Numbered from the stretch's first letter, positions 38,374 through 63,618 are shown. The stretch: 64,000 nucleotides of DNA from Verrucomicrobiales bacterium (GCA_043757865.1 JAYVOP010000169.1:628-64627), one strand, 5' to 3'. Numbers and translations: made by a program. Notes: generated by a model from the letters alone, not told the origin.

Positions 38374-38380
38374 TTTAAAC

Positions 38381-48900: not shown

Positions 48901-51900
48901 AACGCATAGCGCGCTGGTAACAACGTGTAAGTCCCCGCCCGCAAAGCTTCGCTGGCTCCCAGATATACTTGATCGCCAGCCTTCAGGCCGCCGTTTATAT
49001 AGCCTGGATCGCCTCCCAGGTTGCCAGCATTGCTGCTGTTATTGAATGCCCCGAAAGGCGCAAAGTTAGCGTTGTAACTCGGCATGACCGCAAAGCTAGT
49101 GGTCGAGGCCAAGATGTCTTTCGAGCCACCGATGCCTTGAATCCAACGATACGCATAGAGATCGCCCCCGCCGCTGATGTCGATCACCGAGCCTTGCTGC
49201 GTGTTCACTGCTAGACCAGCAATGTTGATCGCCTTCACTGGCGGCCCCGCCGTGGTGATGTCCGTGCCCGCTGGATCAATCCACGATGTGCCATTTTGCA
49301 GAATGCCATACGGAAATGTGAGACCACCACCAGAAATGGAAGTGAGGCTGCTAGGCAAGAGATTCACTGTTTTCGTAGAGCCTACTGCCAAGCCAGAAAA
49401 CGCATCCAGCGGAGCCGTGCCCGTGCCATCCCAGCCCAAATTTATAATGCCCAGCGGAGCGCGCAGGATGCCTCCCTGATTGATCACGCTAGCATAGACA
49501 TTGAGCGTCCCACCCGCCTCAAGCGGTAGATCTCGCCCGCCCGAGGGATTGATGGTGATGGTGCCGGACTGCGTGATGCCACTGATTTTATAGTCAGCCA
49601 CATTTAAAGTAAACAACGTAGCTGCCGCAGGATAAATTTGCGCAGCCGTTAAGTTTAGATGTCCGGCCATGTTCAGCGAGCCATCGCCACGAATGTCACC
49701 ATTCCTAGCCGTAAGATTGGCCAGCCCAATGCCTTGCAGCGAGAGATTCCCCATGTCGATATGATCCGCCGTGACGTTGAGAATGCCCGTGCCGTAAGTT
49801 GGTTTTGCGTCCGCCACCTTCGGCAAGACATCCAGTGCGTTGCTGGGCAGCAAGAACGCCTGACCCAGCGCCACGTAAGGCGCGGAGAGATTCACGGGGT
49901 CCTGCGTTTTGAGAAAACCAGAGTTAGCCACCAACAAACTACCACGCGCAGCAATGTCCACATTGCCCTTAAACTCCACCGCTCCAGATCCGCCTAACGT
50001 CAACGAATCGAAGCCTCCACTCAAAAAAGTATCCGCTGCAAAATAGCCCATACCAGGAGTAGCGTTTCCTCCCCCATTCCGCACGGCAGTGCCGATGCCT
50101 GCGAATCCAGCGGGCAGCGTGAGCCCGCTTTGTTTCACTAGCAACGAAGTGTCCAGCGGGGTCGGTGTATCCAGCGGATCATAATAACGACCCGACGTGA
50201 CGATCAAACTGCCGCCCAAGGCAGTAGCACCACCAGCAAATCCTTTGATCGTGGAATCCACAAACAGCTCTTGCGCACCACGCAGAATTACCGTGCCGCC
50301 ATTGCTATCAACGCGGGTGGCGGTGTTCAGGAAACGATACAGTGGAGAGGTAAGGCCGCTGGAAGTGAGCACCAGTGGAGTCGTTTCTGAGCCAAGGTAA
50401 TTCGGATGCAAGTCCAGCACACCGTTCGTCCCGGACACGTCGATCATGGAGCCAGCTTCAGCCACGATATTTCCTGACAACGTGACCGTGCCACCGGGCA
50501 ACACGCTGCCGACCCGACGCCCATAAGCATCTGGCTGCAAGACTACCATGCCAGCGGCCGACAACGAGCTGCGAGGCCCTAGATAGACCGTCGGCAGCGC
50601 TTGAGTGGCCGTTAGGTTCGAGGGAAATTTATTGGCTCCGGTGAGCGTGATGTTTCCACCCGGAGCAATCACAGAGCCGAGTAAGGCGATGGTATCCGCC
50701 TTGAAATTCACGGTGCTCAAGGGTGGGGTCCGCACGATGGCACCTTCGCCAAACGTCAAATCTCCGCGCACTTTGATGGCCGCATTGTAGTCATCCACGA
50801 CTGGCAACGAGCCAAAATTCAGCGTGAGCGCAGGCCGCATGGATTCGGGATACAGCACATGCGTGGTGGCAAAGGTCTCGCTGTTTGAAGGATACGGGAT
50901 CGCCAACAGACTGACCACTTGGGGAATGATAATCGTTTTTGGAGCCACGATTAAGCCCGGAATAAACTTGTCAGGATCTTCCGTCGCGCTACCAATGCCG
51001 TTGAGCGTAAACGTCGTGAACCCGCCCTCGTTAAAGAACTCCGGCTGTAAGATCGTGGTCCCGCGATAAGCCGAACGTCCGCCAATCTGGAGCAACAACG
51101 CCTGCAACGTCAGCGCTCCGCCTTTGGCATTCACTCCTGCATATCCCTTCAACGTCGCGCCTAATTCCAAGGTGCCACCGATTATGCCGGGCTTCGTGAC
51201 ATCGCGCCCCGTGTTGATAATGAGGCTGCCGCCATTGCCATAAGCCCTACTGCCCGTGGCTCCTAACGCCACGCCGCCAGAGACATCCAGCACCGCTCCC
51301 CGTTGCAGATTGGCGCTGAAACTATTGATCGTAATCGTGCCGCCATTCGTCAGCAATGGCAACGCCAGCGGATCGGGCGCGCTCAAGCGATCATCCACTA
51401 GCAAACCCGCCGTGCTCACGTTCGCCCCTGGAGCAATGGTCACATTACCACGTCCGACATTCGGCGGAGGCGACGCCGTGAGGAATGGCACCGCCCCGGG
51501 CGATAAATTGTAGGCGGTCAATTTCACAGTGCCACCTGGCAAAATAATGTTGCCCTGCACGTTAATGTTGGCTCCAGCCAAAGTCAGGCTACCGCTCGCA
51601 GGCCCCGTTAAATCAATGCCACGCGGCACTAGAATGTTCCCATCAGGATTGCTCACCCCAAAATTTCCAAAGCCAAATTCGCTAAGCCAAGTGGGGGGCA
51701 GCACCGTCTGCGCCACGCGCTCTGGCCGCAGCGCCAAGGGATTGCCACTGGCATCCACCGTGAATGGACCTGCGGCTGGCAAATGAGCATCGCCAAAGGA
51801 AACGCTGGGCGGTGTGGGAGAGAAATCGATCGGTACAGTGCCATTCAATTTCTGCGCAGTGAAATTTAGCTCTAGCGTGGACGCTTTCGCTAGCACGCTG

Positions 51901-54026
51901 CGTTGGCGCTCGCCATTGAGCGTATTGCCAAAGAAATCTCCATCCAGCGCCATCGCTGGCGAGGTGATCGCAAGTCGCCCACCATCCGCACCAAAGATGT
52001 AGCCAGGATCATAGTGGCTGTTCAACATCCACGGCACGGTATAGGTTTCACTAACGCCCCAGTGCGGATGATTCACTTTGAACAAACCATCGAAAATCCC
52101 TTGATACACCAAGTCTGGCGTCGCGTTGGCAATGTCTATCAGATGCCCATTCGCCCACACCCGGCTGGTCTGCACGAAGCCACCTTCAAAGTTTGTCCAG
52201 CCTGCGGAAACATCAATCTTGGCACCTTGCTGCACCACGACGGAACTGCCTGCATTCAGTTTCACAGAGCCCCCTGCAGTAGTTAGTTCACTCACGGAGC
52301 GCTGCACCACATTGAGGAATCCCGTGAGATCACCTAACGGCGTGCCGACCCACACTTGGCCGTTATAAACCCCCGTCTGCCGTAGATCCACGACCAGATT
52401 CACGCCCCGCAAGGCCCCCAGTCGTTGCAGCGGACTATCCGCTAATTCCGAGCCGCGTAACTGCACCACGATGATGTTTTCTGAAATGGGGGCAACGGCA
52501 TCCGTAGTGCCTGCCACATTGATCGTAGTGCCTGGCTCCAGATAAACTTGGCCACCAGAGAACAGCATACTGGAGTCAGGAGTAGCTCCAGAGATGTAAT
52601 TCCAAACCCCTGCGCTGATGGTCACGTTGGCATTCGGTGCCAGCAAGATGGCATCCGAATCTAGATGGATGGTCTTGCCAGAAATTTCCACTTTGCTAGG
52701 CAACGCGAGCTTGGTGCCGGACACCTTATCCGTGCTACTCCATTCCGGCAGGAGTTCCATGGCACTACCTTTACCTATTTCCACATGGCCGCTGGTGCGA
52801 TTCAGAAATCGCAGCGCAGTGTTGTCGGCGGAATTACTAACCGCATCGTAGTTGGCAGAAAGAATGATGCTGCCATTTAAAGAAACCGTAGTGCTAGAGC
52901 GCAGGCCGCCGAGCTGCTCCACGCGTTTCCCTGCCATGGTGATATTCCCGCGCATAGCTTCAATGTAACCGCTGTTGCGGGCAATGCCCACGATGCTAGC
53001 AACCGTCGGTGCGCCCGTCACGGCTCCAATGAACGTATCCAGACCTCGCACGCTAGGGTCTTCCGTGCGATGCGCCGTAAAGCCGACTTGCAAGCCAGCA
53101 GCCAAAATGGTCTGGCCATCCGGTGTTAGAATGCTGCCAGCGTTATGCACGTTAGGCCCCACTAGCGCGATGCGCCCGCCCACATGATCCGCTGAGGTGG
53201 GACTCGAAAGGATGGCTCCTACCTGCACGGTCACATCGCCAATCTTGCCCGCAGGCGGGAGCGGTGGCACGAAGGCAGAGGTCACTTTGCCAGCAGGCAG
53301 GTTCAGCGCGGAGAAAAGAAATTGTGAATCTGGATTATTCAGCAGACCGCGATTGATCAGGTTATCATTGATTGGCAATGACGAAGCCACCAACGTGTGG
53401 ACGTTCACTTGGCTGCCACTGCCAAAGATGATGCCATTTTGATTGATGATGTAAACTTGGCCCTGGGCGCTAATGGAACCCAGAATCTGCGAGGGCGACC
53501 CCGTGGGATCAGTCACGCGGTTAAAGGCTATCCACTGGCTGACGTTGGCTCCGCCTGCGCTTTGATCGAAATTTAAATGAGTGTCACGCCCCACATTAAA
53601 CGTGTTCCAGTTAATGAGCGCTTGCTGGCTCGTTTGCTTAATATTGACACTAGTGATAGCCCCATTTTGCGACTGCGTGGGAGCCTGCGCACCAATCGCA
53701 CTAGCGAAATGCAGCCCGCCTGGAGCTAGTCCATTGGGGATATTGAGAAGTTGTTGTCCTGGGTGATTGGGGTCCGCCCCCGCGTTGTTAGGCCCACTGC
53801 GGGCGGCAGCCTGCGCGGCGGCTTGTAAATTTTTGACCGCTTGGATTGACGAACTCGTGCGCGCTAAGGCATCACGCGCATTCGCGCGGGCTTGGGTGGC
53901 GGTAGCGGCGGTGGCGGCGGAGCTTCCAGAAGCGTTCGGGACATTGGCCGCCGTGCCTCCGCGCAGGATGTCGCCAGCCTGGAGCGACGTCGCGAGCGCC
54001 AGAAAAATGGAGCACAATGGTTTCAT
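42957..54026 (-). CDS. Giant TpsA-type exoprotein (filamentous-haemagglutinin family, N-terminal TPS domain, beta-helical repeats, DUF3739-like C-terminal region)
   Basis: The protein is 3689 aa with a signal peptide (MKPLCSIFLALATSLQA). The TPS domain reads NIKQTSQQALINWNTFNVGRDTHLNFDQ...NRVTDPTGSPSQILGSISAQGQVYIINQNGIIFG. Thousands of residues of G/A/T/S/N/L-rich beta-helix-like repeats follow. The C-terminal block reads GGDISIFAPGG...GGNISIFTDG...WSSTGDIAAGSSSKT...IDAGDAGIRS. After that comes PPPPPPAPAP and a charged tail, DEDPDEEERKRRAREAKEASEASEAIKPQ. Confidence 0.9.
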   Translation of the reverse strand: MKPLCSIFLALATSLQAGDILRGGTAANVPNASGSSAATAATATQARANARDALARTSSSIQAVKNLQAAAQAAARSGPNNAGADPNHPGQQLLNIPNGLAPGGLHFASAIGAQAPTQSQNGAITSVNIKQTSQQALINWNTFNVGRDTHLNFDQSAGGANVSQWIAFNRVTDPTGSPSQILGSISAQGQVYIINQNGIIFGSGSQVNVHTLVASSLPINDNLINRGLLNNPDSQFLFSALNLPAGKVTSAFVPPLPPAGKIGDVTVQVGAILSSPTSADHVGGRIALVGPNVHNAGSILTPDGQTILAAGLQVGFTAHRTEDPSVRGLDTFIGAVTGAPTVASIVGIARNSGYIEAMRGNITMAGKRVEQLGGLRSSTTVSLNGSIILSANYDAVSNSADNTALRFLNRTSGHVEIGKGSAMELLPEWSSTDKVSGTKLALPSKVEISGKTIHLDSDAILLAPNANVTISAGVWNYISGATPDSSMLFSGGQVYLEPGTTINVAGTTDAVAPISENIIVVQLRGSELADSPLQRLGALRGVNLVVDLRQTGVYNGQVWVGTPLGDLTGFLNVVQRSVSELTTAGGSVKLNAGSSVVVQQGAKIDVSAGWTNFEGGFVQTSRVWANGHLIDIANATPDLVYQGIFDGLFKVNHPHWGVSETYTVPWMLNSHYDPGYIFGADGGRLAITSPAMALDGDFFGNTLNGERQRSVLAKASTLELNFTAQKLNGTVPIDFSPTPPSVSFGDAHLPAAGPFTVDASGNPLALRPERVAQTVLPPTWLSEFGFGNFGVSNPDGNILVPRGIDLTGPASGSLTLAGANINVQGNIILPGGTVKLTAYNLSPGAVPFLTASPPPNVGRGNVTIAPGANVSTAGLLVDDRLSAPDPLALPLLTNGGTITINSFSANLQRGAVLDVSGGVALGATGSRAYGNGGSLIINTGRDVTKPGIIGGTLELGATLKGYAGVNAKGGALTLQALLLQIGGRSAYRGTTILQPEFFNEGGFTTFTLNGIGSATEDPDKFIPGLIVAPKTIIIPQVVSLLAIPYPSNSETFATTHVLYPESMRPALTLNFGSLPVVDDYNAAIKVRGDLTFGEGAIVRTPPLSTVNFKADTIALLGSVIAPGGNITLTGANKFPSNLTATQALPTVYLGPRSSLSAAGMVVLQPDAYGRRVGSVLPGGTVTLSGNIVAEAGSMIDVSGTNGVLDLHPNYLGSETTPLVLTSSGLTSPLYRFLNTATRVDSNGGTVILRGAQELFVDSTIKGFAGGATALGGSLIVTSGRYYDPLDTPTPLDTSLLVKQSGLTLPAGFAGIGTAVRNGGGNATPGMGYFAADTFLSGGFDSLTLGGSGAVEFKGNVDIAARGSLLVANSGFLKTQDPVNLSAPYVALGQAFLLPSNALDVLPKVADAKPTYGTGILNVTADHIDMGNLSLQGIGLANLTARNGDIRGDGSLNMAGHLNLTAAQIYPAAATLFTLNVADYKISGITQSGTITINPSGGRDLPLEAGGTLNVYASVINQGGILRAPLGIINLGWDGTGTAPLDAFSGLAVGSTKTVNLLPSSLTSISGGGLTFPYGILQNGTSWIDPAGTDITTAGPPVKAINIAGLAVNTQQGSVIDISGGGDLYAYRWIQGIGGSKDILASTTSFAVMPSYNANFAPFGAFNNSSNAGNLGGDPGYINGGLKAGDQVYLGASEALRAGTYTLLPARYALLPGAVLVTPQSGIPLGTVLKSDGASLVSGYRFNSLNGSREVLEIFSRWEVAPASVVRQRSEYQDYFANAWFTESATKRDATVPRLPIDAGQLVLAATTAMAVNGSVLATTSGGRGGLVDISSPVDILINTSGGAPVPGSLVLDAGQLNGFGAASLLIGGVRKMGANGTSVIVKTNHLTLDNASTPLTGPDIVLVANQALTLAASAQITQNGGTSGGADKISLNGDGLLVRVSSDPNAQVVRTGVTASTVPMMTVGAGVSLSGGSVTLDSTSATSLSPNASLLGQTVNLNSGQISLILNHAGALQPSTGLVLAGAALTNLQSASALNFLSYSSIDIYGTGQVGTASLNQLALHAAEIRGFNTGGGTARLMGQNIYLDNSPGRSAPGIIAAASGTLVLEGGTIHVGQGALNIDQYANVQLQASAGIINESSGSLKVEGNLFLTTPVIAGVAGSSQVLSAGGALTVQKPAGGGTAAITGGRGASLTLSGASLTQGSDILLPSGLLTLRATSGNLNIIGNLDLAGTGHVIQDLTKYSDGGQVKLTADIGNVTIGSGSVVRVAAAAGGGNAGGVSISAPLGQFVLDGSMAGQNGLGGRAGEFSLDAATIPDLDGTNATLNSTGFTAVRNFRIRTGDVTLGGVSNAQNFRLAVDAGKLTITGQINAAGNQGGSIALDASKSLILSSTAVLDASGLHFNSAGKGGDIFLATRGTAGGLLTLSAGSQIKLGVTDASGEGQFTGTLHLRAPQNASSSDLELSSIEGTITGASSIIAEGYKIFDLTNASGSTITTTVQNNVRNNGIMFVGDAGVASAGYNAMLARLTLSNAALQSVLRVQPGAEVINRTGDLILGTTSSTNTADWNLAGNRFGPLSVPGDLTLRAGGNLTFFNSLNDGFVTGAYTSLLLDQNPLLGANQQSYSYTLTAGADFTAANGNQVRAPSGLSATSGLLQLGKNGGLNLSTSPGTTAVTSTGIGTGGKLYQVIRTGSGNINVAAARDVQLLNQFSTIYTAGTKVTDATLGGQFAVPVLSLTGTQGALGAVQQSPGYAAQYTLAGGNVNIFAQGDIRHLTKNTAGALIDDSSRELPFNWLYRRGALDANGNFALSRNNEIASTSWWIDYSNFFEGVGALGGGNVSLTAGGDVRNVDAVAPTNARLTKGAAAASTLVELGGGNVMVNAGANIDGGAYYVERGQGTLNAGGEIKTNATRTPSLGSIINAAPLDSKTWLPTALFVGKGSFDVRARKDLLLGPVANPFWLPQGYSNTYWYKTYFNTYNASTAVSLSSLTGNVTLRTAVAAAGSTTATPILQTWLQNINLLTDNSVSRYQPWLRLDEASVTPFGVTSSIMPGTLKATAMAGNINLQGSLTLAPAARGTIDLVASGAINGLQAVGYNADLNGNVWSASIINLSDSNPDALPGVRTPFAFQSLLTNISVATRARETPNNLLDFVNQHFAESGSVNQALSDKQNLHAPGPLHIGDTQPLHLYAGTGDISGLNLFAGKSARVIAGNDIRDISFYLQNLTASDVSLVSAGRDITPYDATAPLRITAQSAGNSLATGEKPLLGDLQINGPGTLEVLAGRNLDLGSGASLQDGTGTGITSIGNARNPNLTFASSSLIVGAGVGGALGLESASLNFEAFITTYVTAANLSKYQTELAASFPGLTSGNFTALPREEQHRIALEVFYRLLRDSGREHNLAGGLNAGTYTSGLAAIASLFGTGTYVGDINTQSRDIRTKSGGDISIFAPGGKLSLATSVIGTPLAPPGIITESGGNISIFTDGNVDLGISRIFTLRGGNEIIWSSTGDIAAGSSSKTVASAPPTRVIIDPQSGDVKVDLAGLATGGGIGVLNTVAGLAPGSVDLIAVAGKIDAGDAGIRSAGTLNLAAPVIANAGNIAASGAASGAPAVAAPSSPSIAAAPPPPPPAPAPGPSTTDTPKTTAPTAEVPVSLVTVEITGYGGSNRDEDPDEEERKRRAREAKEASEASEAIKPQ

Positions 54027-54028: not shown

Positions 54029-54892
54029 CTAAGGCGCGGATTGTTTGAGTGCTTGCGCTAGGGTGAGTTCGTTGATGGACAAAGGATTTTCTTGCAGCAA
54101 CTTGGCCAGGACCTCCTTGGTGTTGATCTTAATTTTATCAGAGCGCATTTGCTGACGCAGTTGGGCGCGCACTTCATCTAGCAAAGGAGTGTAGGGTGCT
54201 TTGCTATCAAGCACCCTCACCACATGCCAGCCATCTTCCATTTTAATGGGCTCAGAAATGGCATTCAACGTGAGCTTGGGCAACAATGTGCGAATCTCTG
54301 GCTGCACATCAGTGTCCGCCACCCAACCAATCTCACCGCCCTTGCTAGCGCTGGCAGTTTCATCGCTGAACTCGTTGGCGAGGGAACTGAAGTCTGGTTT
54401 CCTGCCAGCCAAGGCCTTGCGCAGCGCTTCCAGCTTCGTCTTGGCGTTGGCGTTGGTAAGGTAGATCTGTGCGAGGCGATATTTCTTCGACTGCTGCAAC
54501 GCGGCCTTGCTCTCATTGTAAAATAGCTCCAATTCCGCATCGTTCGGAAAGGACTCCATCGGCTCGGCTTGCTTCTGTAAATAGGATTCCACCAGCGTCG
54601 TCTGTCGCACGCGCTCAAGCTGCGCCTTCACTTCTGGCTGCTCGTCGTATTTGGCCTCGGCCACTTTGCTCAACACTAATTTCTGCACTAGGACGGAGCG
54701 CACCAGTTGATTGAGCAAAGCCGGATTGTCGGCCAACGACGCCAGATCCTTCTGCGGTAAGTTGCCGAGCGACTCCTTGAGTTCTGGCAATTTCAATTCC
54801 GCCGGGCCGATCTTTGCAAGCACGCCCAAGCCCGTGGACTGTGCTAGCGCGCAGCTTGCGGAAAGGAGCACTATGGAACAAATGTGCTTCAT
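54029..54892 (-). CDS. Secreted parvulin-type peptidyl-prolyl isomerase (SurA/PpiD-like chaperone)
   Basis: The protein has a signal peptide. The PPIC rotamase domain reads FSSLANEFSDETASASKGGEIGWVA...EPIKMEDGWHVVRVLD. The stop lies 2 nt before the tpsA ATG. Confidence 0.75.
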   Translation of the reverse strand: MKHICSIVLLSASCALAQSTGLGVLAKIGPAELKLPELKESLGNLPQKDLASLADNPALLNQLVRSVLVQKLVLSKVAEAKYDEQPEVKAQLERVRQTTLVESYLQKQAEPMESFPNDAELELFYNESKAALQQSKKYRLAQIYLTNANAKTKLEALRKALAGRKPDFSSLANEFSDETASASKGGEIGWVADTDVQPEIRTLLPKLTLNAISEPIKMEDGWHVVRVLDSKAPYTPLLDEVRAQLRQQMRSDKIKINTKEVLAKLLQENPLSINELTLAQALKQSAP

Positions 54893-55560
54893 GGAACAGT
54901 TGGTTGACTAGGGGCCGTAGGCTTGGGCTTGGCTTGGGCATCATTTGGTTTCACCTTGGCGTCTTGCAGCTTGTCCTTGTAGTCCTGCACTAAAGTCTCC
55001 AGCTTCACCTTACTCAGCCCGGTGAATGGCTCCTTGGAGAGCAATGCCCGGCCTAATCCATAGTTCTCGTAACGTGTCAGAATTTCTTTTCCTAACTGAT
55101 ACAATTCCAGATTCTTGTTCTCCCGATCGAGCGCCTTCCGGTCCAGTTTGATGACTTCATCTGCCAACCGAGCGCGGTCATTTTCCTTCCCTTGCGCAGT
55201 GCTTTCCATCTTCTTGAAGGCGTCTTGCCACTGCTTTAGGGACTCATTGGCTTTCACCAAACGAGCCTCTTGGTCGGCAATCTTAGCTTTGGCATCGGCA
55301 CTATCCTTGTCTGTCCTCGCCTTGTCATCGGCACTGTTTTTCAGGGCCTGTTCCAGCTTCGCTTTCAAGTCCTTGTTGGCCGCTTCCGCCTCGTCCTTGG
55401 CGGCTTGCAACGTAGCCGCATCGCCTTGGGCAGTGCGCAGTTGCAGCATGGTGGTCTTTAATTGCTCGCGCATTTTGGCGATGGCCGGATCTGGTCCGGC
55501 GGCGGGTTCGGCGTGCGTAAAGGCCGTGAGTAAACTCAAAATGAGGAAAATTCGTTTCAT
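54889..55560 (-). CDS. Secreted coiled-coil protein of unknown function
   Basis: The start is the ATG at 55560 (MKRIFLILSLLTAFTHA signal). Long K/E/A/D/L heptad-like stretches follow. The stop overlaps the PPIase start as ATGA. Confidence 0.6.
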   Translation of the reverse strand: MKRIFLILSLLTAFTHAEPAAGPDPAIAKMREQLKTTMLQLRTAQGDAATLQAAKDEAEAANKDLKAKLEQALKNSADDKARTDKDSADAKAKIADQEARLVKANESLKQWQDAFKKMESTAQGKENDRARLADEVIKLDRKALDRENKNLELYQLGKEILTRYENYGLGRALLSKEPFTGLSKVKLETLVQDYKDKLQDAKVKPNDAQAKPKPTAPSQPTVP

Positions 55561-55561
55561 G

Positions 55562-57466
55562 TTAGAATTTGGTGCTGATGTCGATAAAGAAGACGTCGCT
55601 CTTGAGCGGCGGTCCGGCAATTTCTTGGGCACTCATCCATTGGAAGCCCACCTTGGTGCGCTTGGAGAGGGCCATGGAGGCTCCCAGGACAAAGCCTTTA
55701 GCATTGGTGCCACCGCCTGCAAATTCAGAATCAGTGAAGCCGTCGATGACTGCATCCGATTCCACATAGCGATAACCCACGAACGCATTCCAGTCATAGC
55801 GCTTAGCCAGCGCGGCCTTGCCCAGTTGCAGTTGCAGCATCCACGCGGTGTCACCACCTTCGTATTTTCCGATCTCTGTCGGCGTGGTGCGCGGCGTGGT
55901 GTCCGCCGTCGTGGTCGTAGTGGTTTTACCATCGGCCCCAGTGGTGGTGACATCGATCGTAGGCGGAGCGGGGTTCGGACCACGATTATTTACCGCTACT
56001 TTTTCGATGTCGCCCTGACGGAAAGCGAGGTTTTTCAGATACTCCCCTTTCAGCGATAACTGATAGGGTTCCCAATTATTGAAATCAATTTTCCCCGTGA
56101 GAGCCAGCACTTGGAAGGGCGTAGCATAGCCGAAATATTGATATTGATTGGTCGTGCCGAAGTTGTTCAACGGGCCTGGGACAATGTTTCTCAGTGCCAT
56201 GTAAGTATTCCCGCGTTGGGCAAAGGCGGGCCGTGTGGTGTCGGTGTTGCCCGCATCGGAGGCGCTAAGCGGCGTATAGGGATCAGACAATTTACCCTCG
56301 GCTCCTTTGAAATAATAGTAAGCCACGCCCACTTTGGCATCAATCTTCTTAGTCACTTGCCAATCAAAACCTACTTGGCCTGCGATGAGCCATTTGTCGG
56401 TACTATTATACTTGCTAGGTTGATTGCTACTGAAGTTTAGATCCGTGTTGTAGAAGGGCGAGAACGTGGCGTTTACAAACGGCGTGAAGCCTGGGACGAT
56501 CTCATATTTCCCCTGCAAGGCGATGCCGTCCATCCCCACGTCTTCATCAAAGAGCACGTCAGAACAGAAGAATGGATTATCAAAACGACCGAACGTGAGT
56601 GCGAGTTCCTTGCCTGGAATATCCCCCAGTTCCCATTTCATAAAGGCGCGGTCTAACCAGATGGCATACTTACTGAAATTACCACCTTGGCCACTGCCAG
56701 ATGCACCCAAACTTTGGTTAGTGGTCACTGGGCTGTTGCTTTCCCCAGTGCCAATGCGCAGCCCCCCCGTGAAGCCGTCACCAAGGTCTAACTCCGTGCC
56801 AATCCGAGCACGCAGTCTCATGCGAGAACGATTTGCATCAGTATTATATTGAGGGGAAAAATTCGTGCCGCTGGTATCAAATGGCGAGCCCGTGTTAATC
56901 GCGTTGAAGTTAGGAAAAGCACCCGTGTTATCATTTCCCTGCGGATAATTATCGACTTCAAAACGTAGCCGAATATCGCCAAAGGGCTTCCAACGGGAAA
57001 TCCATTCCGGCGTCTGGCCAGCGCCTGTCCACTTCTCCGTCTTAGCAGTGGCCATGACTTCGTCTTTGATTTCATCGCGAATTTTAGCACGTACGGTTTC
57101 GGGAATGTAGGGCACGCGCATGTCGTTATCACCCAACGGATCAGCCGTGGAGGCGGCACGAGCGTCTGCGGCGTCTTGCTCAGCTTGAGCGATCAGCGCT
57201 TGGCTTTCACCTTGAGTCAGAGCGCCTTTTTTCTCCAAAATGCGCAGCAGATTCACCATTGCATTTTGAGAGGGGGGATTGGCCGCAGCTTGCGGAGTTA
57301 CTAAATCACCCGCAGGCGGCAGCGCAGGAGCCTCCGGTGCTTCATTAGGTAAGGATGGCTCTGCAGGTGCAGCTTCTGGAGTTTGCGCAAACAGATTGGA
57401 TACACAAAGCGTAGAGGCTAGGAACAATGGCCAGGGACGGCCAACAAGACGGTAACGTTTTTTCAT
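55562..57466 (-). CDS. Outer-membrane beta-barrel protein (putative porin-like family)
   Basis: The protein has a signal peptide and a Pro/Ala-rich linker. Alternating beta-strand patterns run throughout. The C-terminus reads ...DVFFIDISTKF, and the terminal aromatic residue is an OMP beta-signal. The protein is 634 aa. Confidence 0.6.
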   Translation of the reverse strand: MKKRYRLVGRPWPLFLASTLCVSNLFAQTPEAAPAEPSLPNEAPEAPALPPAGDLVTPQAAANPPSQNAMVNLLRILEKKGALTQGESQALIAQAEQDAADARAASTADPLGDNDMRVPYIPETVRAKIRDEIKDEVMATAKTEKWTGAGQTPEWISRWKPFGDIRLRFEVDNYPQGNDNTGAFPNFNAINTGSPFDTSGTNFSPQYNTDANRSRMRLRARIGTELDLGDGFTGGLRIGTGESNSPVTTNQSLGASGSGQGGNFSKYAIWLDRAFMKWELGDIPGKELALTFGRFDNPFFCSDVLFDEDVGMDGIALQGKYEIVPGFTPFVNATFSPFYNTDLNFSSNQPSKYNSTDKWLIAGQVGFDWQVTKKIDAKVGVAYYYFKGAEGKLSDPYTPLSASDAGNTDTTRPAFAQRGNTYMALRNIVPGPLNNFGTTNQYQYFGYATPFQVLALTGKIDFNNWEPYQLSLKGEYLKNLAFRQGDIEKVAVNNRGPNPAPPTIDVTTTGADGKTTTTTTADTTPRTTPTEIGKYEGGDTAWMLQLQLGKAALAKRYDWNAFVGYRYVESDAVIDGFTDSEFAGGGTNAKGFVLGASMALSKRTKVGFQWMSAQEIAGPPLKSDVFFIDISTKF

Positions 57467-57493: not shown

Positions 57494-58174
57494 CTAGTTC
57501 GGTCGCGCGATGTTGATGCGCATGTTGATCGGCATCGGCATGCCGTTAGGGGGAGGCTCGGGGAGCTGGAGGCCCTGTAACACATTGGCATCCAGCGACT
57601 GGGCAGTGTTTTGATCGCCACTGACATTGCGCAGCACAGCCTTGGTCACGCGGCCCGTGGAGTCCGTCCAGAGGCTGGCTTCGCAACGGAGCGCGGCGGT
57701 TTTGGTGAAGGAATTTCTCGTGATGGCACTAACAAGCGCCTTTTGTGTGGATAGCACAAAGCCATCATATTTGCCTTTCTTATGACCCCCGCCAATGCTC
57801 GCCACGCGACGGGGCCCACCGGGCAAGACGCCCCCTGGAGCGACTGGCGCATCATTAGAAGGCGCAGCATCGGCGGGGGAGTCAGGAGGGGTATCGGGTT
57901 CATCCACTACTTTCTCTTGCACTACTTCTTTGACCTCCACGGGCGGCGGTGGTGGTGGCGGCGGCAGCGGGGGAGGTGGCGGCGGGAGGGTGATGCTGAC
58001 AACGTGTTCCACTTTAGAGACGCGCATTTTCTCTACGGGTGGACGGGTGGCTAAATAAGCGGCAACACCTCCGAATGCACCTAACATCGCCAAGAAGGCG
58101 AGTGGATTGCGCTTGTAGAGGGGGCGTTCGTCGAACTCATCGAACTCGTCTTCAGGTAGGTTTTGCTTTGCCAT
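57494..58174 (-). CDS. TonB-like energy-transducer protein
   Basis: An N-terminal TM anchor (FLAMLGAFGGVAAYLA) is followed by the proline-rich rod PPPPPPLPPPPPPPPVEVKEV and a ~90-aa C-terminal domain. I prefer the ATG at 58174 because the track start at 58204 is TTG. Confidence 0.7.
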   Translation of the reverse strand: MAKQNLPEDEFDEFDERPLYKRNPLAFLAMLGAFGGVAAYLATRPPVEKMRVSKVEHVVSITLPPPPPPLPPPPPPPPVEVKEVVQEKVVDEPDTPPDSPADAAPSNDAPVAPGGVLPGGPRRVASIGGGHKKGKYDGFVLSTQKALVSAITRNSFTKTAALRCEASLWTDSTGRVTKAVLRNVSGDQNTAQSLDANVLQGLQLPEPPPNGMPMPINMRINIARPN

Positions 58175-58187: not shown

Positions 58188-58583
58188 TTACTTTTCGCTA
58201 GCAAGATTAATTTGAGTGATGCCCATTTTGTTGAGCGTGTCTAACACGGGCCAGAGCATGTTGTATTGCGCTAGTCCATCGCCTCGGATAATGACTGGGG
58301 AGTCAGGAAATTTCCCCCGCCAGACAGAGATGCGCCCTTCCAGATCGCCCAAGGGGGTAGGGCTGGTGGATTTATCTACCATGACGCCACCTTGGGCGTT
58401 GATGGTGATCGAGAGCGGCTTTTTCTCCGTCAACGTGGCTGCACTGCTGCTTTTGGGTAGGTTCACTTTCAAGCCTTGTACGCTGGCGGTGGTCATGATG
58501 ATGAAGATCAGCAGGAGCACTAAATAAAGGTCCACCATCGGCGTGACGTTGATGTCGTCGTAGGATTTATCGTCGGCATTCAT
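58188..58583 (-). CDS. exbD: ExbD/TolR family protein
   Basis: The motif DINVTPMVDLYLVLLLIFIIMTT is followed by a periplasmic domain containing VIIRGDGLAQYNMLWPVLDTLNKMGI. The protein is 131 aa. Confidence 0.85.
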   Translation of the reverse strand: MNADDKSYDDINVTPMVDLYLVLLLIFIIMTTASVQGLKVNLPKSSSAATLTEKKPLSITINAQGGVMVDKSTSPTPLGDLEGRISVWRGKFPDSPVIIRGDGLAQYNMLWPVLDTLNKMGITQINLASEK

Positions 58584-58589: not shown

Positions 58590-60428
58590 TTATTCGTTGG
58601 CGGTGGGATAGGCCTCAGCAATCCGGGCGACGAATTCATCAATAAAGATTTCCATGCCATTGATGGTGTCTTTAATACGCGCATTTAAATAGCTGTATAA
58701 AAACAACGCCGGAATAGCGACCGCCAGCCCCGCCACTGTGGCCAGCAGCGCACCTGCGATACCCGGAGCGATTGAATTGATCTCCACCTGCCCGCTTTGA
58801 GCGATCACAGCAAAGGTCATCATCACCCCAATGACCGTGCCCAGCAGCCCTAGGTAAGGACCACCTGCAATGCCAATGGTGAGGAACACTAACTTGCTCT
58901 GCAAACGCTGCACTTCCCGTACGTGGCCACCATCCAGCGTGGCGCGGATGGCTTCGATCGAGCGCCCGGAGAGCCCGGAAAATTTCTCTTTATCCGCATC
59001 GATTCGCTTCTGGATTTCTTGTGATCCAATATGATAAATGTGAAACAACGGAGACTGCCGCATGAGCCGCTGTTCTCCGCCGGAGGCTGCTCCCAGCCCC
59101 GCCTTGCCGTCTTCGTTGGCGTGATCCAACGCGGTCAGATCACCAGAAATGTCTTTCCAGCGACGGAGGAATGCTTTGGTAGCAGCGGAAATTTTATTCA
59201 AATAGAGGAATTTCTGCACACCCACCATCCAGCCCACGATGGCCAACAAAACGCAGCCGATGATCACAATTTTGCCATCGAAAGTGAGGTCTTTACCAAT
59301 GTTGCGGAACATCTTCACCTGCGAAATAAACTCGCTTTCCTTTTCCGCTTCTTCAGCCGCTTCCACCACGCTTTGCGTAATCATCTTGGCGGCCTCTGGG
59401 CCAGTACCTTGGCTGATCGCAGCGAGCTTGATACTGCCTGGTTCGCGCGCTATTTTGGAGATTTCTAACTCATCAATTTCTCCGCTAAATGAAGTATCGC
59501 CCGGAGTGTCGGTTTTCCCCAAAATGCTGGGGCCACTCAGTGCCGGAAGGCCCACGGAAATGGTGCCCGCTGCCGTGCCATTGAGATAGAGAGTGATGCT
59601 AGGCCCATTGGCGATGACCGCCAGATGCGCCCACGCATTGACGATCAATGACGTGGTGCCCGTGGCGACTTGTTTATTGCCACCTGTGGTAATCTCTACA
59701 TAAGGCAGCCCCTTATTTTCACCCACCACAAATCCGTTATCGCCCTCCTGACGACTAAAGATCATGGCCTTTTCCCGCAGCGCACTGGGCTTGACCCACA
59801 GCGACCAAGTGAGCCCGCCATTGGCATTCCATTGCATGGCTGGATTGTCCATTTTAATGGGCTTGGGAGCAGGTAAGCGCAAGCCGTTGCCAATGATAGC
59901 CCCGTAAGCCACCGCACCTGAGGCATCCGGGAGAATGGAGTTAGGACCGGAGTCCAAGGCGGCGGCATTGTTTTCCGCGAAGTGATACACTAAGATCGTA
60001 TCCGCATCATAAGTAGCCTTAGGTTCAAATGATTTCGTGGCCTTACTATTGCCATAGTAGAGCCAAATTTTGGTAGCTGCTTCTGGCTGTAAGCTGGGAA
60101 GTTTCACCCACACCGCCGCCTCTCCGATGGAGGCATCCCACTGCTCAATGTGATACGAAAGCAGTGTCTTATCATCATCCGCCAAGAAACGTAAATCGGA
60201 CGCATCATCCAACGTGCCGGAAGGGAAATTCGCATCTTTTAAACGGATCAACACGGCCGTAGTGCCAATGGGATTACCGATGGCAAAACCTTTCTCAGAA
60301 GTATCAATGGTGATCTTCTTACGCGACGTCCAATCCTTATTCCACCAGTCTCCTGCGTGCGAGAATGCGACGGTGCCCAGCAAGATACTGGATGTGTAAA
60401 TAAGAGAGCGAAGGGAGGAACAAAGCAT
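58590..60428 (-). CDS. MotA/TolQ/ExbB proton-channel protein with a large N-terminal periplasmic DUF2341-like and LamG/ConA-like extension
   Basis: The protein is 612 aa. The N-terminus has a signal or TM segment followed by GDWWNKDWTSRKKITIDTS (a DUF2341-type start). Next comes LTWSLWVKPS...AWAHLAVIANGPSITLYLNGTAAG (LamG-like). The C-terminal 230 aa form the ExbB core (GGPYLGLLGTVIGVMMTF...GIAGALLATVAGLAVAIPALFLY). Confidence 0.8.
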   Translation of the reverse strand: MLCSSLRSLIYTSSILLGTVAFSHAGDWWNKDWTSRKKITIDTSEKGFAIGNPIGTTAVLIRLKDANFPSGTLDDASDLRFLADDDKTLLSYHIEQWDASIGEAAVWVKLPSLQPEAATKIWLYYGNSKATKSFEPKATYDADTILVYHFAENNAAALDSGPNSILPDASGAVAYGAIIGNGLRLPAPKPIKMDNPAMQWNANGGLTWSLWVKPSALREKAMIFSRQEGDNGFVVGENKGLPYVEITTGGNKQVATGTTSLIVNAWAHLAVIANGPSITLYLNGTAAGTISVGLPALSGPSILGKTDTPGDTSFSGEIDELEISKIAREPGSIKLAAISQGTGPEAAKMITQSVVEAAEEAEKESEFISQVKMFRNIGKDLTFDGKIVIIGCVLLAIVGWMVGVQKFLYLNKISAATKAFLRRWKDISGDLTALDHANEDGKAGLGAASGGEQRLMRQSPLFHIYHIGSQEIQKRIDADKEKFSGLSGRSIEAIRATLDGGHVREVQRLQSKLVFLTIGIAGGPYLGLLGTVIGVMMTFAVIAQSGQVEINSIAPGIAGALLATVAGLAVAIPALFLYSYLNARIKDTINGMEIFIDEFVARIAEAYPTANE

Positions 60429-60564: not shown

Positions 60565-62265
60565 CTAAAAATCAGTAGATACTTTAAACGACAACAACAC
60601 CTCGCCCACCTTGGCGTTCGTTTGATTGATCAACGGCCAGCCTGCATCCAGTGAGCCGTGGAAATGATTCTTTAATTTCACCCGCGTGCCGACTCCGACG
60701 CTCATGAGTTTGAAGGTATCCTTTTGGTCGGGAAGTGGATCCACGATGGAGAGTCTCGCACCGTCCCAGAAGCCGTAGATGCGCCATTCATTGGCGGGAT
60801 CGCGGGTGGCTTCGCTTTCCTTTTCTGGCTGAGGGTTCATGCGCCCTAATAAGGATGGAGTGCGGAGTTCTAACGTGACGGCTAGGCCGTTATCACCTAG
60901 CTGGGTGGACTCTAGGTAGCCCCGCACGGTGCCCATGCCCCCAGCGGAAAATTGCTCGCTGTTAATGAGAGAATTGGCGGTGCCTTGCGTGGAAATTTTA
61001 CCGAACACCTGCGCGCCTAACGGCAAGTCTTGGGTATGCGAGGCATCAGCCCTAATGTGGAAGAAAGCCGCGCTGGCTTGGTAGCGTTTGTTGTCGTATT
61101 CCAATTCATCGCTGCCGCCTAGGCCACGCAGGCTGAAGGTGGCGGTGGAATTAAATTCCGTAAATGAATGTTTCCCTGACCAGTTCGCGCCATAGCTAGC
61201 ACTGATGGGGAAATAGGTGATCGGCGTGGCGATTTCACTTGTCCCAACGAGCACGTTCTCTTTGAAATGCTTGTAGTCCACACCGAGGCTAGCGGTCTGG
61301 TAGAACTCCGCTTCCGTTGGTAAATTAATCAGCGCCCGCACGCCAAAAATCTCGCCCCGACCAGTCACAGCGGCTCCTCCCAATGTGGAAACATTGCTGT
61401 CCTGCTTGGTGGCATTTAGCATCAAGCTGACGTTGTCCAACGAATCGAATTTTGCCAAATAGTAGGCGGCATAAACGGAGGCATCCTTGGGGCTTTCAGG
61501 CGCTACTTGATAGCTGATGCCGGCCGCGTGGCCTTTTTGCCAAAGATTCGAATAGTTCAAAGCTGCATTCACCCGCAACGGAGCGGTGTCCGCAGTGTAG
61601 CGGTTATTCAATTCAAGGCTGCCATGCAGCGGAGATTTATCTTTCACTTCCAGATCAATATCCACCGTGCCAGGCTCTACGCCTGGATTCACGGACGGCT
61701 TCACTTGCAGGTCTGGCGCGGAATTCAACGCGATGATCTCCTTGGTGACTTCATTGAAATCTACCACCTTTCCCTCGGCTAGGGAGGGCACGCGCTGCTT
61801 GATTTGATCCAACGTGAAGTATCGCGAATTCCGCACCCGCAGTCGGCCCACAGTATTCTCCGTCACCAGCATTTTGATAACCCCGCGTCTGGGCACTTGT
61901 GGCGGCACTTCCACGACGACGGTTTTATATCCTTTGTCTTGAAACGCCTTTTCCAAAGCCGCTCGCGCGCCCTCTACGTCCTTGGTCGTGCGGCTCGGGC
62001 CGAGAAACGGATACACTGCTTTTTCCACCTCCGGCAGCGTCAAATGTTGCACTCCCGTGACACGATATTCGCGCACGTACAGACTATCCTCGGGACCGTC
62101 CGAGGGAGCCTCTGGCGCGGGCTCATTATCAGGAAATGCCGCATCGGAACGCGGTGACATCGTCGAGGCCGTTTCCGCTAGAGCATTTCCTAACCCCAGC
62201 AGCACGCCGCAGACCACGGCTAGAGGGGCGCGCGCGGCGGGCGGGGTAGTGGAAAATGATCGCAT
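60565..62265 (-). CDS. TpsB outer-membrane transporter (ShlB/FhaC/HecB family, POTRA domains plus beta-barrel)
   Basis: The POTRA region reads YVREYRVTGVQHLTLPEVEKAVYPFLGP...DVEGARAALEKAFQDKGYKTVVVEVPPQ. It is followed by a 16-strand-like barrel with C-terminus ...LLSFKVSTDF. I favour the ATG at 62265 (MRSFSTTPPAARAPLAVVCGVLLGLGNALA) over 62301. That choice places the conserved upstream element at the same distance as in exbB. Confidence 0.85.
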   Translation of the reverse strand: MRSFSTTPPAARAPLAVVCGVLLGLGNALAETASTMSPRSDAAFPDNEPAPEAPSDGPEDSLYVREYRVTGVQHLTLPEVEKAVYPFLGPSRTTKDVEGARAALEKAFQDKGYKTVVVEVPPQVPRRGVIKMLVTENTVGRLRVRNSRYFTLDQIKQRVPSLAEGKVVDFNEVTKEIIALNSAPDLQVKPSVNPGVEPGTVDIDLEVKDKSPLHGSLELNNRYTADTAPLRVNAALNYSNLWQKGHAAGISYQVAPESPKDASVYAAYYLAKFDSLDNVSLMLNATKQDSNVSTLGGAAVTGRGEIFGVRALINLPTEAEFYQTASLGVDYKHFKENVLVGTSEIATPITYFPISASYGANWSGKHSFTEFNSTATFSLRGLGGSDELEYDNKRYQASAAFFHIRADASHTQDLPLGAQVFGKISTQGTANSLINSEQFSAGGMGTVRGYLESTQLGDNGLAVTLELRTPSLLGRMNPQPEKESEATRDPANEWRIYGFWDGARLSIVDPLPDQKDTFKLMSVGVGTRVKLKNHFHGSLDAGWPLINQTNAKVGEVLLSFKVSTDF

Positions 62266-62323
62266 GGTGGTATGATTGAAGCTGGGGGAATTAGGGCTCA
62301 CTTATTTCAATCGCACGGGCTGG

Positions 62324-62412: not shown

Positions 62413-63618
62413 TTAATAATCGTTGGTGATGGTGCCACCATCAATGGGGCGGCTCACATTGAGGCTACTGATGCGCAGGGTGGCATCAGTAGAGAGCAGT
62501 TTATTTCCTAGCAGATTAGCGATCGCGTAATTCTGAACTGCCGACAGATTAGCGCGATAGAGCAGGTGCTCATAGGCCCAAATAGAGTAGGCTCCATTGG
62601 CCACATTTTCCGGCGTATAGGGCACTCCATTATAAGCTAGGTAATGTGCTCCAGCAGCCACGGCATTGGCCGCATCCAACGTAGGCAGATAGGAAACATA
62701 GTATCCACCCAGCGTGGCGAGGGTGCTTTTTGGAAGCACGACTGTAGCCAGATTACCATTGCTGGGATTGCCATCGCTACCTTCTAGGAAATCAATGCCG
62801 TTCCGCGTTACGGCTGGATATGGCACGTGACTGATGATGGAGTTTGCCAAAGCTCCGGTGCCAATGGTGGGCTTGTATTGCACGAGGTTTGCATTTCCAC
62901 CAATACCTGTTTCTACAAGGGTTACAAGACGCGCGCCAGACTCAGGATCACGTCCTGTGGCATAGACATAAGCGGGTTCGTTGGTGGCTGGGAGCACGGC
63001 GGTGCGGTCCGAATCCTGCCCCGTAAATACGGCTAGTGGCAACCGTCCCACGCCATATAAGGCCTGCGCCTGTTGCGTGGAAATGTTGTTGAAACGCACG
63101 GGCGCATCTTTACTAGCAACAAAGACGTAGGCTCCTGCGCCTACCTTCAGGTCCGTCAGCACGGGAGTGCGATAGACCGTGGTGTTCTGAAAGGTATCCA
63201 CCGCTGCAACGTCGGCCACGAGGGACTCTACAGCCGCTCCGGTATTCAGCGCTGATGGCGTGCCCGCAGAGCTTTGAAGCGTGGTGGTCTTAAGGAAACT
63301 GATCTGCTCATTGGTGGTCACGACGCGCACGCCAGCAGTGGAACCATTCCATGAAGTGCGGAAATAAATGGTGTCCGTGCCGCCCGTAGGTAGGGCGATG
63401 GTGCCGGTCCAAATACTTTGCTGTGCTTTATTGATGTCCGTGCCAGTATAGGCATAGGTAAATGAGCTACCGGTGTCAGTTAGGACATGCAAGATGGCGC
63501 GGTGCACGGCATCGCCAAAGGCTTGGGCACCCGTGATGCGGATGTCAATGGCGGCGGGCGCAGTGGACAATGTGACTAATGAGAATAGCGTGGATAACAG
63601 ATAATTAGATTTTTTCAT
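62413..63618 (-). CDS. Secreted protein, possibly with a periplasmic-binding-protein (PstS/PBP-like) fold
   Basis: The protein has a signal peptide (MKKSNYLLSTLFSLVTLSTAPA). The stretches IRITGAQAFGDAVHRAI and ...NNISTQQAQALYGVGRLPLAVFTG... resemble type-2 PBP-like domains. The family assignment is weak. Confidence 0.35.
   Translation of the reverse strand: MKKSNYLLSTLFSLVTLSTAPAAIDIRITGAQAFGDAVHRAILHVLTDTGSSFTYAYTGTDINKAQQSIWTGTIALPTGGTDTIYFRTSWNGSTAGVRVVTTNEQISFLKTTTLQSSAGTPSALNTGAAVESLVADVAAVDTFQNTTVYRTPVLTDLKVGAGAYVFVASKDAPVRFNNISTQQAQALYGVGRLPLAVFTGQDSDRTAVLPATNEPAYVYATGRDPESGARLVTLVETGIGGNANLVQYKPTIGTGALANSIISHVPYPAVTRNGIDFLEGSDGNPSNGNLATVVLPKSTLATLGGYYVSYLPTLDAANAVAAGAHYLAYNGVPYTPENVANGAYSIWAYEHLLYRANLSAVQNYAIANLLGNKLLSTDATLRISSLNVSRPIDGGTITNDY

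Follow-up and report, generated by a model that had tools for sequence, protein, structure and literature searches.

Two-partner secretion (TPS) is taught as an energy-free process at the outer membrane. Canonical ExbB and TolQ have their N-terminus in the periplasm, and TonB2 systems energise TonB-dependent transporters for iron uptake. In Pseudomonas aeruginosa, a secretion pair and an ExbB-type gene lie in one published cluster—pdtA-phdA-pdtB-exbB2-exbD2-tonB4-PA0696-PA0697-PA0698-PA0699, part of the sigma-VreI/PhoB regulon (PMC2729926, PMC7035377)—which a 2009 paper described, along with its association in further bacteria with homologues of TPS, exbBD and PA0696 (PMC2729926). A survey from 2025 names DUF2341 and DUF3450 among the parts of unknown function that are appended to the N-terminus of ExbB/TolQ-type subunits (PMC12505986). 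Here we analyse a stretch of 64,000 nucleotides (nt) from Verrucomicrobiales bacterium (GCA_043757865.1 JAYVOP010000169.1:628-64627; hereafter the window), in which a minus-strand gene encodes an ExbB-type core preceded by folded DUF2341 and LamG domains. On the basis of alignment, architecture and gene order, this fusion gene is the Verrucomicrobial orthologue of P. aeruginosa ExbB2 (PA0693), and we consider it modestly probable that its product belongs to a dedicated proton-driven motor for a secretion/porin module, with the periplasmic domains forming a crown that serves as a docking adaptor.

A periplasmic didomain on an ExbB-type core

The open reading frame (ORF) at 58590..60428 (minus strand) starts with ATG and continues uninterrupted for 612 amino acids (aa). 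Its parts are as follows (TM, transmembrane helix; pLDDT, predicted local distance difference test).

58590..60428, minus strand: ExbB2-type subunit, 612 aa, with signal peptide, DUF2341, Laminin_G_3, linker helix and TolQ/ExbB three-helix core
60354..60428, minus strand: signal peptide, residues 1-25, predicted cleavage between ...SHA and GDWW (N-terminus by inspection)
59934..60353, minus strand: DUF2341 beta-sandwich, residues 26-165 (Pfam; model pLDDT mostly 86-96)
59424..59933, minus strand: LamG/concanavalin-like jelly-roll, residues 166-335 (Pfam Laminin_G_3; model pLDDT 89-98)
59274..59423, minus strand: variable linker, residues 336-385, ending in a predicted helix into TM1 (AlphaFold2, identity)
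58590..59273, minus strand: TolQ/ExbB proton-channel core, residues 386-612, with TM1, cytoplasmic loop, TM2 and TM3 (TIGR02796, PDB)

A profile scan placed all three Pfam families above their curated cut-offs: DUF2341 (PF10102; residues 75-160, E 1.2e-18, 67.7 bits vs 23.4), Laminin_G_3 (PF13385; residues 200-333, E 1.7e-20, 74.1 bits vs 27.6) and MotA_ExbB (PF01618; residues 487-593, E 3.1e-27, 95.3 bits vs 22.9). An earlier note on this DNA had proposed DUF2341-like and LamG-like domains behind a signal or transmembrane segment, with the ExbB core confined to the last ~230 aa. Both domain calls are borne out by the Pfam matches; profiles and PDB alignment put the core at residues 386-603; and hydropathy, sequence inspection and the structural model agree on the N-terminal segment and the periplasmic extension. 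The signal peptide was read by eye and from the family alignment, and the junction of A-x-A with WW at its end is kept across that alignment.

A hydropathy scan located the core helices at about 387-405, 515-543 and 559-583. Residues 386-603 align with TolQ/ExbB in NCBIfam profiles and in a PDB sequence search, in which the chain alignment covered ExbB residues 24-200 and TolQ residues 108-217. The protein thus has the three TM helices and the non-cytoplasmic N-terminus of PF01618 members, and because the N-terminus of ExbB and TolQ is periplasmic, so is the mature N-terminal extension of ~360 aa. Modelled alone with AlphaFold2 (residues 26-385, 64 sequences), this extension is folded (mean pLDDT 90.1; predicted template modelling score, 0.87), which disposes of the disorder that the earlier note had allowed for; the model consists of two beta-sandwiches followed by a C-terminal helix leading to TM1 (model residues 333-356, that is, protein residues 358-381). 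A Foldseek search of the PDB with the extension returned solely generic ConA/LamG jelly-rolls (E ~1e-9 over ~220 columns, probability 1.00), among them clostridial neurotoxin Hc-N, AbnA domain 4, pentraxins and a trans-sialidase lectin domain, and a PDB sequence search with the periplasmic part found nothing beyond a marginal S-layer LamG match (E 0.016). A jelly-roll fold does not by itself make the domain a lectin or a direct binder of cargo, as the earlier note had suggested.

The core scored 120.5 bits with the TolQ equivalog TIGR02796 (residues 386-603; cut-off 221) and 68.3 bits with the ExbB equivalog TIGR02797 (cut-off 206.2). Because both scores fall far under the cut-offs, the core is, by profile score, a member of the superfamily but an orthologue of neither TolQ nor ExbB; an ORF and Pfam scan of the operon found no TolB or Pal, the neighbours that mark TolQ proper. 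T531 (TM2) and T564 (TM3) are invariant in an alignment of 13 sequences from two phyla, and the Asp of the INxTPxxD transmembrane motif of ExbD is invariant in 7 orthologues. The polar residues of PF01618 motors are therefore present on both partners, and judged by these conserved residues the proton path is intact and the motor competent.

The E. coli motors TolQ–TolR and ExbB–ExbD (5:2 complexes; PDB 8odt, 5sv0) have in common with this system the three-helix core with its TM2/TM3 Thr, a partner whose transmembrane helix contains an Asp, and a neighbouring gene for a proline-rich transducer. Unlike them, the window protein adds ~360 folded periplasmic residues and a predicted cleavable signal peptide, its core stays under both equivalog cut-offs, its transducer lacks the conserved transmembrane His, and at the outer membrane its module has TpsB and a plug-less porin in place of a TonB-dependent transporter or TolB-Pal. 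The ‘long’ ExbB of Serratia marcescens (PDB 6ye4, 7ajq) likewise carries a signal peptide and a periplasmic N-terminal extension (PMC9008036), but that extension is about 50 residues long (few to 150), Ala/Pro-rich and unstructured, in contrast to the ~360 folded residues here. The Vibrio TonB2 system (TtpC, TtpB/DUF3450) also combines an ExbB-family protein bearing an added N-terminal part with a coiled-coil accessory protein in the operon, although the appended domain differs from that of the window protein and the DUF3450 similarity in our module is sub-threshold.

Orthology with P. aeruginosa ExbB2

Searching with the window protein yielded 2,696 homologues at E<=1e-5 among the scored candidates, and a second search, seeded with a copy from a Klebsiella plasmid, yielded 2,004. 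All 240 listed homologues (120 per search) contain PF10102, PF13385 and PF01618. Sources of the best 120 in the first search include Brevifollis, Prosthecobacter and Chthoniobacter, under the names ‘DUF2341 domain-containing protein’ or ‘biopolymer transporter ExbB’; the 120 listed in the second come from Pseudomonas, Achromobacter, Bordetella, Serratia, Halopseudomonas and Alloalcanivorax. The set includes isolate genomes (Brevifollis, Pseudomonas, Achromobacter, Bordetella and Serratia), and a single P. aeruginosa cluster comprises 904 member sequences. The fusion is already recorded in Pfam and in NCBI names. That two separate genes were joined by an assembly, sequencing or annotation artefact, a possibility raised in the earlier note, has a probability close to nil: the frame is uninterrupted, 240 of 240 listed homologues have the same architecture, an identical fusion protein is present on two independent assemblies, and nothing speaks for such a join.

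The full-length alignment of the 615-aa P. aeruginosa homologue with the window protein shows 34% identity (E 2e-102), so that shared architecture, full-length alignment and multi-gene synteny together place the window gene in the orthologous group of ExbB2 (PA0693). This named orthologue, and the cluster described in 2009, had been overlooked in the earlier note. On the P. aeruginosa contig, exbB2 is preceded by genes for a 4,180-aa TPS+DUF3739 protein, a DUF772 protein and a POTRA_2/ShlB protein, and is followed by genes for ExbD, a weak TonB_2 match, Porin_5, a 220-aa protein, YbjN and a PpiC rotamase; beyond PpiC lie a 141-aa protein and LysR and AraC regulators. The two systems share the three-domain ExbB architecture, the order of TpsB, ExbD, the TonB-like protein, Porin_5, a ~220-aa helical secreted protein and PpiC, and a TpsA with TPS and DUF3739 domains and the same C-terminal motif; the proteins of the window operon are 28-40% identical to their counterparts. 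They differ in that YbjN (PA0698), PA0700, LysR/AraC and vreAIR are absent from the window, in that tpsA stands at the operon end in the window and before tpsB in P. aeruginosa, and in an extra insert in the cytoplasmic loop.

Phylogenetically distant as it is, the window gene belongs to a family that is known but functionally unexplained. In the mostly open-access literature we found no later functional study of exbB2/tonB4 and none for PF16930/Porin_5, for ExbB+LamG or for TPS+proton motive force, and the exbB2 papers surveyed there do not discuss the periplasmic extension; the DUF2341 appendage receives no more than a passing mention.

Conservation of the extension

Between Verrucomicrobial and proteobacterial proteins, identity is 42% in DUF2341 (33 of 140 positions invariant), 31% in LamG, 14% in the linker, 22% in TM1, 25% in the cytoplasmic loop and 62% in TM2-TM3. 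DUF2341 is the best-conserved region after the TM2-TM3 channel, and it, not LamG, is the better-conserved half of the didomain (42% vs 31% between phyla). Judged by this pattern of conservation, the extension is under selection.

The same didomain occurs in tandem in giant secreted proteins of 1,000 to 7,867 aa; the ones scanned are built of DUF2341 and Laminin_G_3, to which some add a few further domains of surface type. (A search with the window didomain matches 24,566 library proteins at E<=1e-3.) These cassettes are about 28% identical to the window didomain and share the core residues W28, R36, D78, W107, H149, D159, W211, W266, D319 and E320, but they come in 3-24 copies without a membrane motor, whereas fusion-type copies have invariant residues of their own. 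Because most invariant residues of the extension are shared with the generic DUF2341-LamG copies, they are best read as structural. Twelve are fusion-specific (R62, N67, F68, R80, D86, D98, A104, W122, F150, G236, P242 and P295), with conservation of >=91% in 152 fusion-type proteins and <=35% in 540 generic copies. As 9 of these 12 fall in DUF2341, the functional surface is likely to lie there, not on the lectin-like half.

Linkage to a secretion and porin module

We compared about 90 loci, comprising 7 from genomes, 80 from metagenomes (37-53% identity) and annotated plasmid and contig copies, all retrieved by similarity to the window protein (>=37% identity). Their flanks were searched (tblastn) with neighbour proteins from the window, P. 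aeruginosa and Methylosinus; denominators are the loci with enough flank, and for TpsA only the window and Methylosinus queries were counted. In 71 of 72 loci the gene immediately upstream, on the same strand, is TpsB. Downstream of the fusion gene, ExbD follows in 85 of 86 (the sole miss being a 9-nt overlap of tblastn matches that fails the filter for non-negative gaps), and the TonB-like gene (57/57), Porin_5 (46/46) and the coiled-coil gene (41/41) are present throughout. PpiC was found at 21 of 33 loci, YbjN at 7 of 33, and TpsA within 10 kb at 17 of 20. A search of 72,556 plasmids placed the fusion gene in 12 records, and full-length Porin_5 in exactly those 12. Clinical as well as environmental Klebsiella plasmids carry the module (K. 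pneumoniae IncFIB/IncHI1B, L012, and NZ_CP084804.1); on the former, insertion sequence elements flank the module.

We place high confidence in the identity of the fusion protein and in a role dedicated to the module. The earlier note had named the TpsA passenger and the product of an adjacent polysaccharide locus as candidate cargoes of the extension. The first survives as a link to TPS through strong synteny, with TpsB directly upstream in 71/72 loci and TpsA at <=10 kb in 17/20. For the second, the neighbouring locus proves genuine, whereas the cargo role finds no support, the locus not being conserved beside the module.

In that second proposal, LamG would bind the product of the adjacent ~33-kb locus and the motor would aid its export. 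The locus downstream of tpsA does encode a Bac_transf protein, a flippase, acyltransferases, glycosyltransferases and a 2-epimerase, Porin_5 resembles AlgE, and glycosyltransferase genes lie upstream of the module on Methylosinus and Methylomagnum plasmids. Yet in P. aeruginosa, Cupriavidus and Klebsiella the module has no polysaccharide locus beside it, the invariant neighbours are the TPS and Porin_5 genes, and in the window the 11-kb tpsA separates the polysaccharide genes from the operon. Because the locus is not conserved beside the module, we regard a polysaccharide cargo as extremely unlikely.

The flanks also bear on surface signalling, in which the motor would power a relay from TpsA or the porin through VreA and VreR to sigma-VreI, and the crown would scaffold VreA. 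VreA consists of a signalling domain and a TonB-like C-terminal domain. Genes of the vreA, sigma and FecR types flank the module in Methylosinus (L011) and at several metagenome loci; PUMA3 was already associated in 2009 with homologues of TPS, exbBD and PA0696 (PMC2729926); and the ExbB extension of S. marcescens affects Has signalling (PMC9008036). Against this, sigma and FecR genes together lie within 10 kb at just 4 of 20 loci, and the regulators are absent from the window and from most Verrucomicrobial loci. Since they accompany a minority of loci, signalling cannot be the core function, and as an account of the motor it is very unlikely.

Components of the operon

The gaps between successive genes, from the fusion gene onward, are 6, -17 and 27 nt and then -4 and 2 nt, the junction of Porin_5 with the coiled-coil gene overlapping or abutting according to the start codon chosen. 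These small or overlapping gaps indicate that the neighbourhood from tpsB to tpsA forms one transcription unit, as far as spacing can tell. Its further components, and the genes on either side, are the following.

60565..62301, minus strand: TpsB (PdtB orthologue), POTRA_2 and ShlB barrel (Pfam; 40% identity to the P. aeruginosa protein)
58188..58583, minus strand: ExbD/TolR-type partner, 131 aa, with transmembrane Asp (Pfam ExbD, E 1.4e-25)
57494..58174, minus strand: TonB-like transducer (TonB4 orthologue), with TM helix, poly-proline rod and C-terminal domain (alignment)
55562..57466, minus strand: Porin_5 outer-membrane barrel (PA0696 orthologue), with three N-terminal periplasmic helices (Pfam, E 3e-183)
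57089..57121, minus strand: Porin_5 motif MRVPYIPETVR, in a low-confidence segment between two periplasmic helices
54889..55560, minus strand: secreted coiled-coil protein, 223 aa (PA0697 orthologue; 29% identity to the P. aeruginosa protein)
54029..54892, minus strand: periplasmic PpiC/parvulin-type prolyl isomerase (PA0699 orthologue; Pfam Rotamase families)
42957..54026, minus strand: TpsA of PdtA type, 3,689 aa, with TPS domain at 121-248, DUF3739 at 3493-3603 and a proline-rich linker
43059..43091, minus strand: TpsA C-terminal motif SLVTVEITGYG, 33 residues before the stop
62413-63618, minus strand: secreted 401-aa protein upstream of tpsB, no family match
about 28500-42530, minus strand: polysaccharide biosynthesis locus downstream of tpsA

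With POTRA_2 and ShlB in TpsB and a TPS domain in TpsA, the pair belongs to two-partner secretion (type Vb). Judged by the alignment, TpsB proteins of this subfamily have a short (about 13-31 aa), variable, proline-rich stretch linking the signal peptide to POTRA1, and may do without an FhaC-type N-terminal plug helix.

The TonB-like protein matches TonB_2 weakly in the window (16.5 bits; cut-off 22) and at 25.6 bits in its P. aeruginosa orthologue, and the alignment shows a conserved SGD...PP...RP pattern in the C-terminal domain. The transmembrane helix of 6 orthologues has no conserved His and no SHLS motif, the transducer feature described in PMC12204202. Without this His, the protein may couple to the motor in another way than TonB and TolA do.

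In its AlphaFold2 model (pLDDT 75.5), Porin_5 forms a barrel with about 18 strands and has no plug domain. A PDB sequence search with it returned nothing; its best structural matches (Foldseek) are OmpM1, AlgE, DcaP and OprB. By Pfam scan and this model, the operon has no classical TonB-dependent transporter (22 strands, plug and TonB box). One public annotation, P0390 (565 aa), starts 69 codons downstream and would lose the signal peptide; a start that gives the 634-aa ORF with MKKRYRLVGRPWPLFLASTLCVSNLFA is more plausible. The MRVPYIPETVR segment conforms to the consensus (V/K)RVxY(I/V)PExV(K/R), found in 39 sources, and R117, V118, Y120, P122, E123 and V125 are >=90% conserved in 60 sequences, while residues 107-118 have pLDDT below 50. 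This segment may be a TonB-box-like site.

TpsA ends in a motif of its own, S-(V/I)-x-x-V-(E/Q)-(V/I)-x-G-(Y/F)-G, which lies after a low-complexity linker, beyond DUF3739. The regular expression has 11 matches in 2.5 million six-frame residues, all 6-50 residues before the stop of a module-linked TpsA (the window and L014, L012, L041, L053, L059, L064, L073, L080, L085 and L090); the TpsA of L084 carries a looser variant, AISVQVEGFG, that the expression misses, and P. aeruginosa PdtA carries SVITVQVLGFG. Both the TpsA and the Porin_5 motif are strand-like islands amid disordered surroundings, and we infer that they are the kind of element that the C-terminal domains of TonB and TolA bind through strand addition.

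For the coiled-coil protein, the mechanical ORF 54889-55632 (minus strand) has a GTG start, 247 aa and a 71-nt overlap with Porin_5; the ATG at 55560 gives a clean signal peptide and matches public gene calls. The protein has no Pfam family even at E 10. Its copy in Methylomagnum gives a weak DUF3450 match below threshold (E 0.008), and on this single match we do not claim a relation to DUF3450/TtpB. The likeness of the 401-aa protein to a PBP_like_2 protein (23% over 62 aa, pairwise E 8e-5) is too faint to serve as evidence; the PBP_like_2 protein in question adjoins a TpsB on the Methylomagnum plasmid. In the polysaccharide locus we identified a Bac_transf priming transferase, a Polysacc_synt_3 flippase, three Acyl_transf_3 proteins, glycosyltransferases, an FkbM methyltransferase and a UDP-GlcNAc 2-epimerase.

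Several of these components recall a Tol-Pal-like tether, in which motor, rod, stalked porin and coiled-coil protein would link the membranes and brace the anchor of a ~3,700-aa fibre, the crown binding peptidoglycan or the stalk. The motor subunits score higher with Tol than with Ton models (TolQ vs ExbB, 120.5 vs 68.3 bits; TolR vs ExbD, 89.4 vs 56.3 bits), and the order of a Q-R-A-like set, an outer-membrane protein and a coiled-coil protein parallels tolQRA-tolB-pal-cpoB. The best structural match of Porin_5, OmpM1, is an outer-membrane attachment porin with a periplasmic stalk, and glycan binding is common for LamG-type domains. However, the scores lie far under the TolQ and TolR equivalog cut-offs, profile scans detected no peptidoglycan-binding domain in any component, and a tether would leave the parvulin and the TpsA C-terminal motif unexplained. 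We therefore rate a tether as unlikely.

Proposed role of the motor

Nutrient (phosphate) scavenging is the least improbable rival: TpsA would capture a substrate at the cell surface, Porin_5 would be the entry channel gated by the TonB-like protein, and the crown would receive a phosphorylated glycan or polymer. The P. aeruginosa cluster is induced by phosphate starvation through PhoB and sigma-VreI and adjoins the Hxc secretion system and LapA alkaline phosphatase (PMC7035377, PMC2729926). On the Methylomagnum plasmid the neighbours are alkaline phosphatase, PhoX, phoU and a PBP_like_2 protein, and the Cupriavidus cluster adjoins a type II secretion system and a secreted nuclease. The fold of Porin_5 is porin/AlgE/OprB-like, and HxuABC, to whose haem capture such a machine would be analogous, provides the precedent of a TpsA working with a TonB-dependent uptake protein (PMC5422565). 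Like the window operon, Haemophilus influenzae HxuA/HxuB/HxuC joins a two-partner secretion pair to a Ton-dependent outer-membrane component (PMC5422565), but HxuC is a classical TonB-dependent transporter served by the housekeeping Ton complex, whereas the window operon has its own motor and a plug-less porin. Against uptake, the module has no plug-bearing TonB-dependent transporter, and Porin_5 is without a plug; the parvulin, and the YbjN-type gene of proteobacterial clusters, suit biogenesis better; the 64-kb window has no recognisable Pho genes or vreAIR, with a faint PBP-like similarity upstream; and phosphate regulation tells of timing, not of function. Scavenging thus appears doubtful, though it deserves to be kept in view.

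The explanation that we favour, a dedicated motor with a docking crown, can be set out as follows. ExbB2 would be the channel-forming subunit of a TolQ/ExbB-type proton-driven motor. Cleavage of the predicted signal peptide would leave the folded DUF2341 and LamG didomain of ~360 aa at its N-terminus in the periplasm, and if the subunit is pentameric like other ExbB/TolQ proteins, five didomains would crown the motor. With ExbD2 from the same operon and the proline-rich TonB4-like transducer, ExbB2 would make up an energiser dedicated to a single envelope module, consisting of the PdtB/PdtA-type pair, the plug-less Porin_5 with its periplasmic helical stalk, the secreted coiled-coil protein and the parvulin chaperone. 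The crown would act as a docking adaptor that keeps a periplasmic partner from the module against the motor, so that proton flow could do work on the secretion/porin apparatus at the outer membrane.

Candidate partners for the crown are the TonB4 C-terminal domain, the Porin_5 stalk, the coiled-coil protein and a periplasmically retained TpsA C-terminus. The TonB-like protein, the Porin_5 barrel and the parvulin of the operon, as alternative partners for the extension, had been overlooked in the earlier note. We prefer to see this work applied to the giant TpsA, in its biogenesis, gating or release, and favour such a handling role because of the parvulin in the operon, the conserved C-terminal handle of TpsA and the precedent of the Serratia extension. 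The parvulin itself suggests periplasmic handling of TpsA, and in S. marcescens a dedicated TonB paralogue, HasB, is bound at its C-terminal domain by the short extension that ExbB carries on its periplasmic N-terminus (PMC9008036). In both the specific crown partner and the work done, our confidence is low.

A stronger form of this proposal is proton-powered two-partner secretion, which would be the first energy-coupled type Vb system. The TpsA C-terminus would stay periplasmic, TonB4 and the crown would grip the SxxxVEVxGYG strand of TpsA and/or the VRVxYIPE box of the Porin_5 stalk, and proton flow would pull, gate or release the protein. We offer this form tentatively, as a possibility that we hold to be well short of probable.

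Several points weigh against a dedicated motor that acts on secretion. The prevailing view is that two-partner secretion works without an energy source at the outer membrane. Three of 20 loci have no TpsA within 10 kb, and on Methylomagnum ishizawai plasmid pRS11DPr1 (L095, L096) the module is dispersed: fusion gene, ExbD, TonB-like and coiled-coil genes stand beside alkaline phosphatase and PhoX, Porin_5 stands beside phoU about 38 kb off, and the ShlB gene stands beside the PBP_like_2 protein. On the Klebsiella plasmid, TpsA and TpsB are partial tblastn matches that are unlisted in the incomplete PLSDB gene table. More distant DUF2341-ExbB fusions, beyond the reach of our similarity-based sampling, may sit in other contexts. 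In zebrafish, transposon insertions in PA0690, PA0692, PA0695 and PA0696 produced no virulence phenotype (PMC2729926), and exbB2-exbD2-tonB4 has been called “still uncharacterized” (PMC7035377), no experiment tying ExbB2, ExbD2 or TonB4 to PdtA secretion.

Implications

To the cluster described in P. aeruginosa, the present analysis adds the orthology, the quantified linkage across phyla, the plug-less porin, the missing His of the transducer, and residue and motif handles. From Verrucomicrobiota to Pseudomonas, Bordetella, Achromobacter and Klebsiella plasmids, the PdtA/PdtB-type TPS subfamily is nearly always encoded with its own proton-driven motor. Experiments can build on the 12 fusion-specific residues, on the strand motifs of TpsA and Porin_5 and on a model organism amenable to genetics. 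Should the motor prove to act on the secretion pair or its porin, the view of type V secretion would change, and the uncharacterised exbB2-exbD2-tonB4 of P. aeruginosa would gain a function within a phosphate-starvation virulence regulon. If the module is instead an uptake or tethering device, it would still represent a non-canonical Ton/Tol system that operates without a plug-type transporter.

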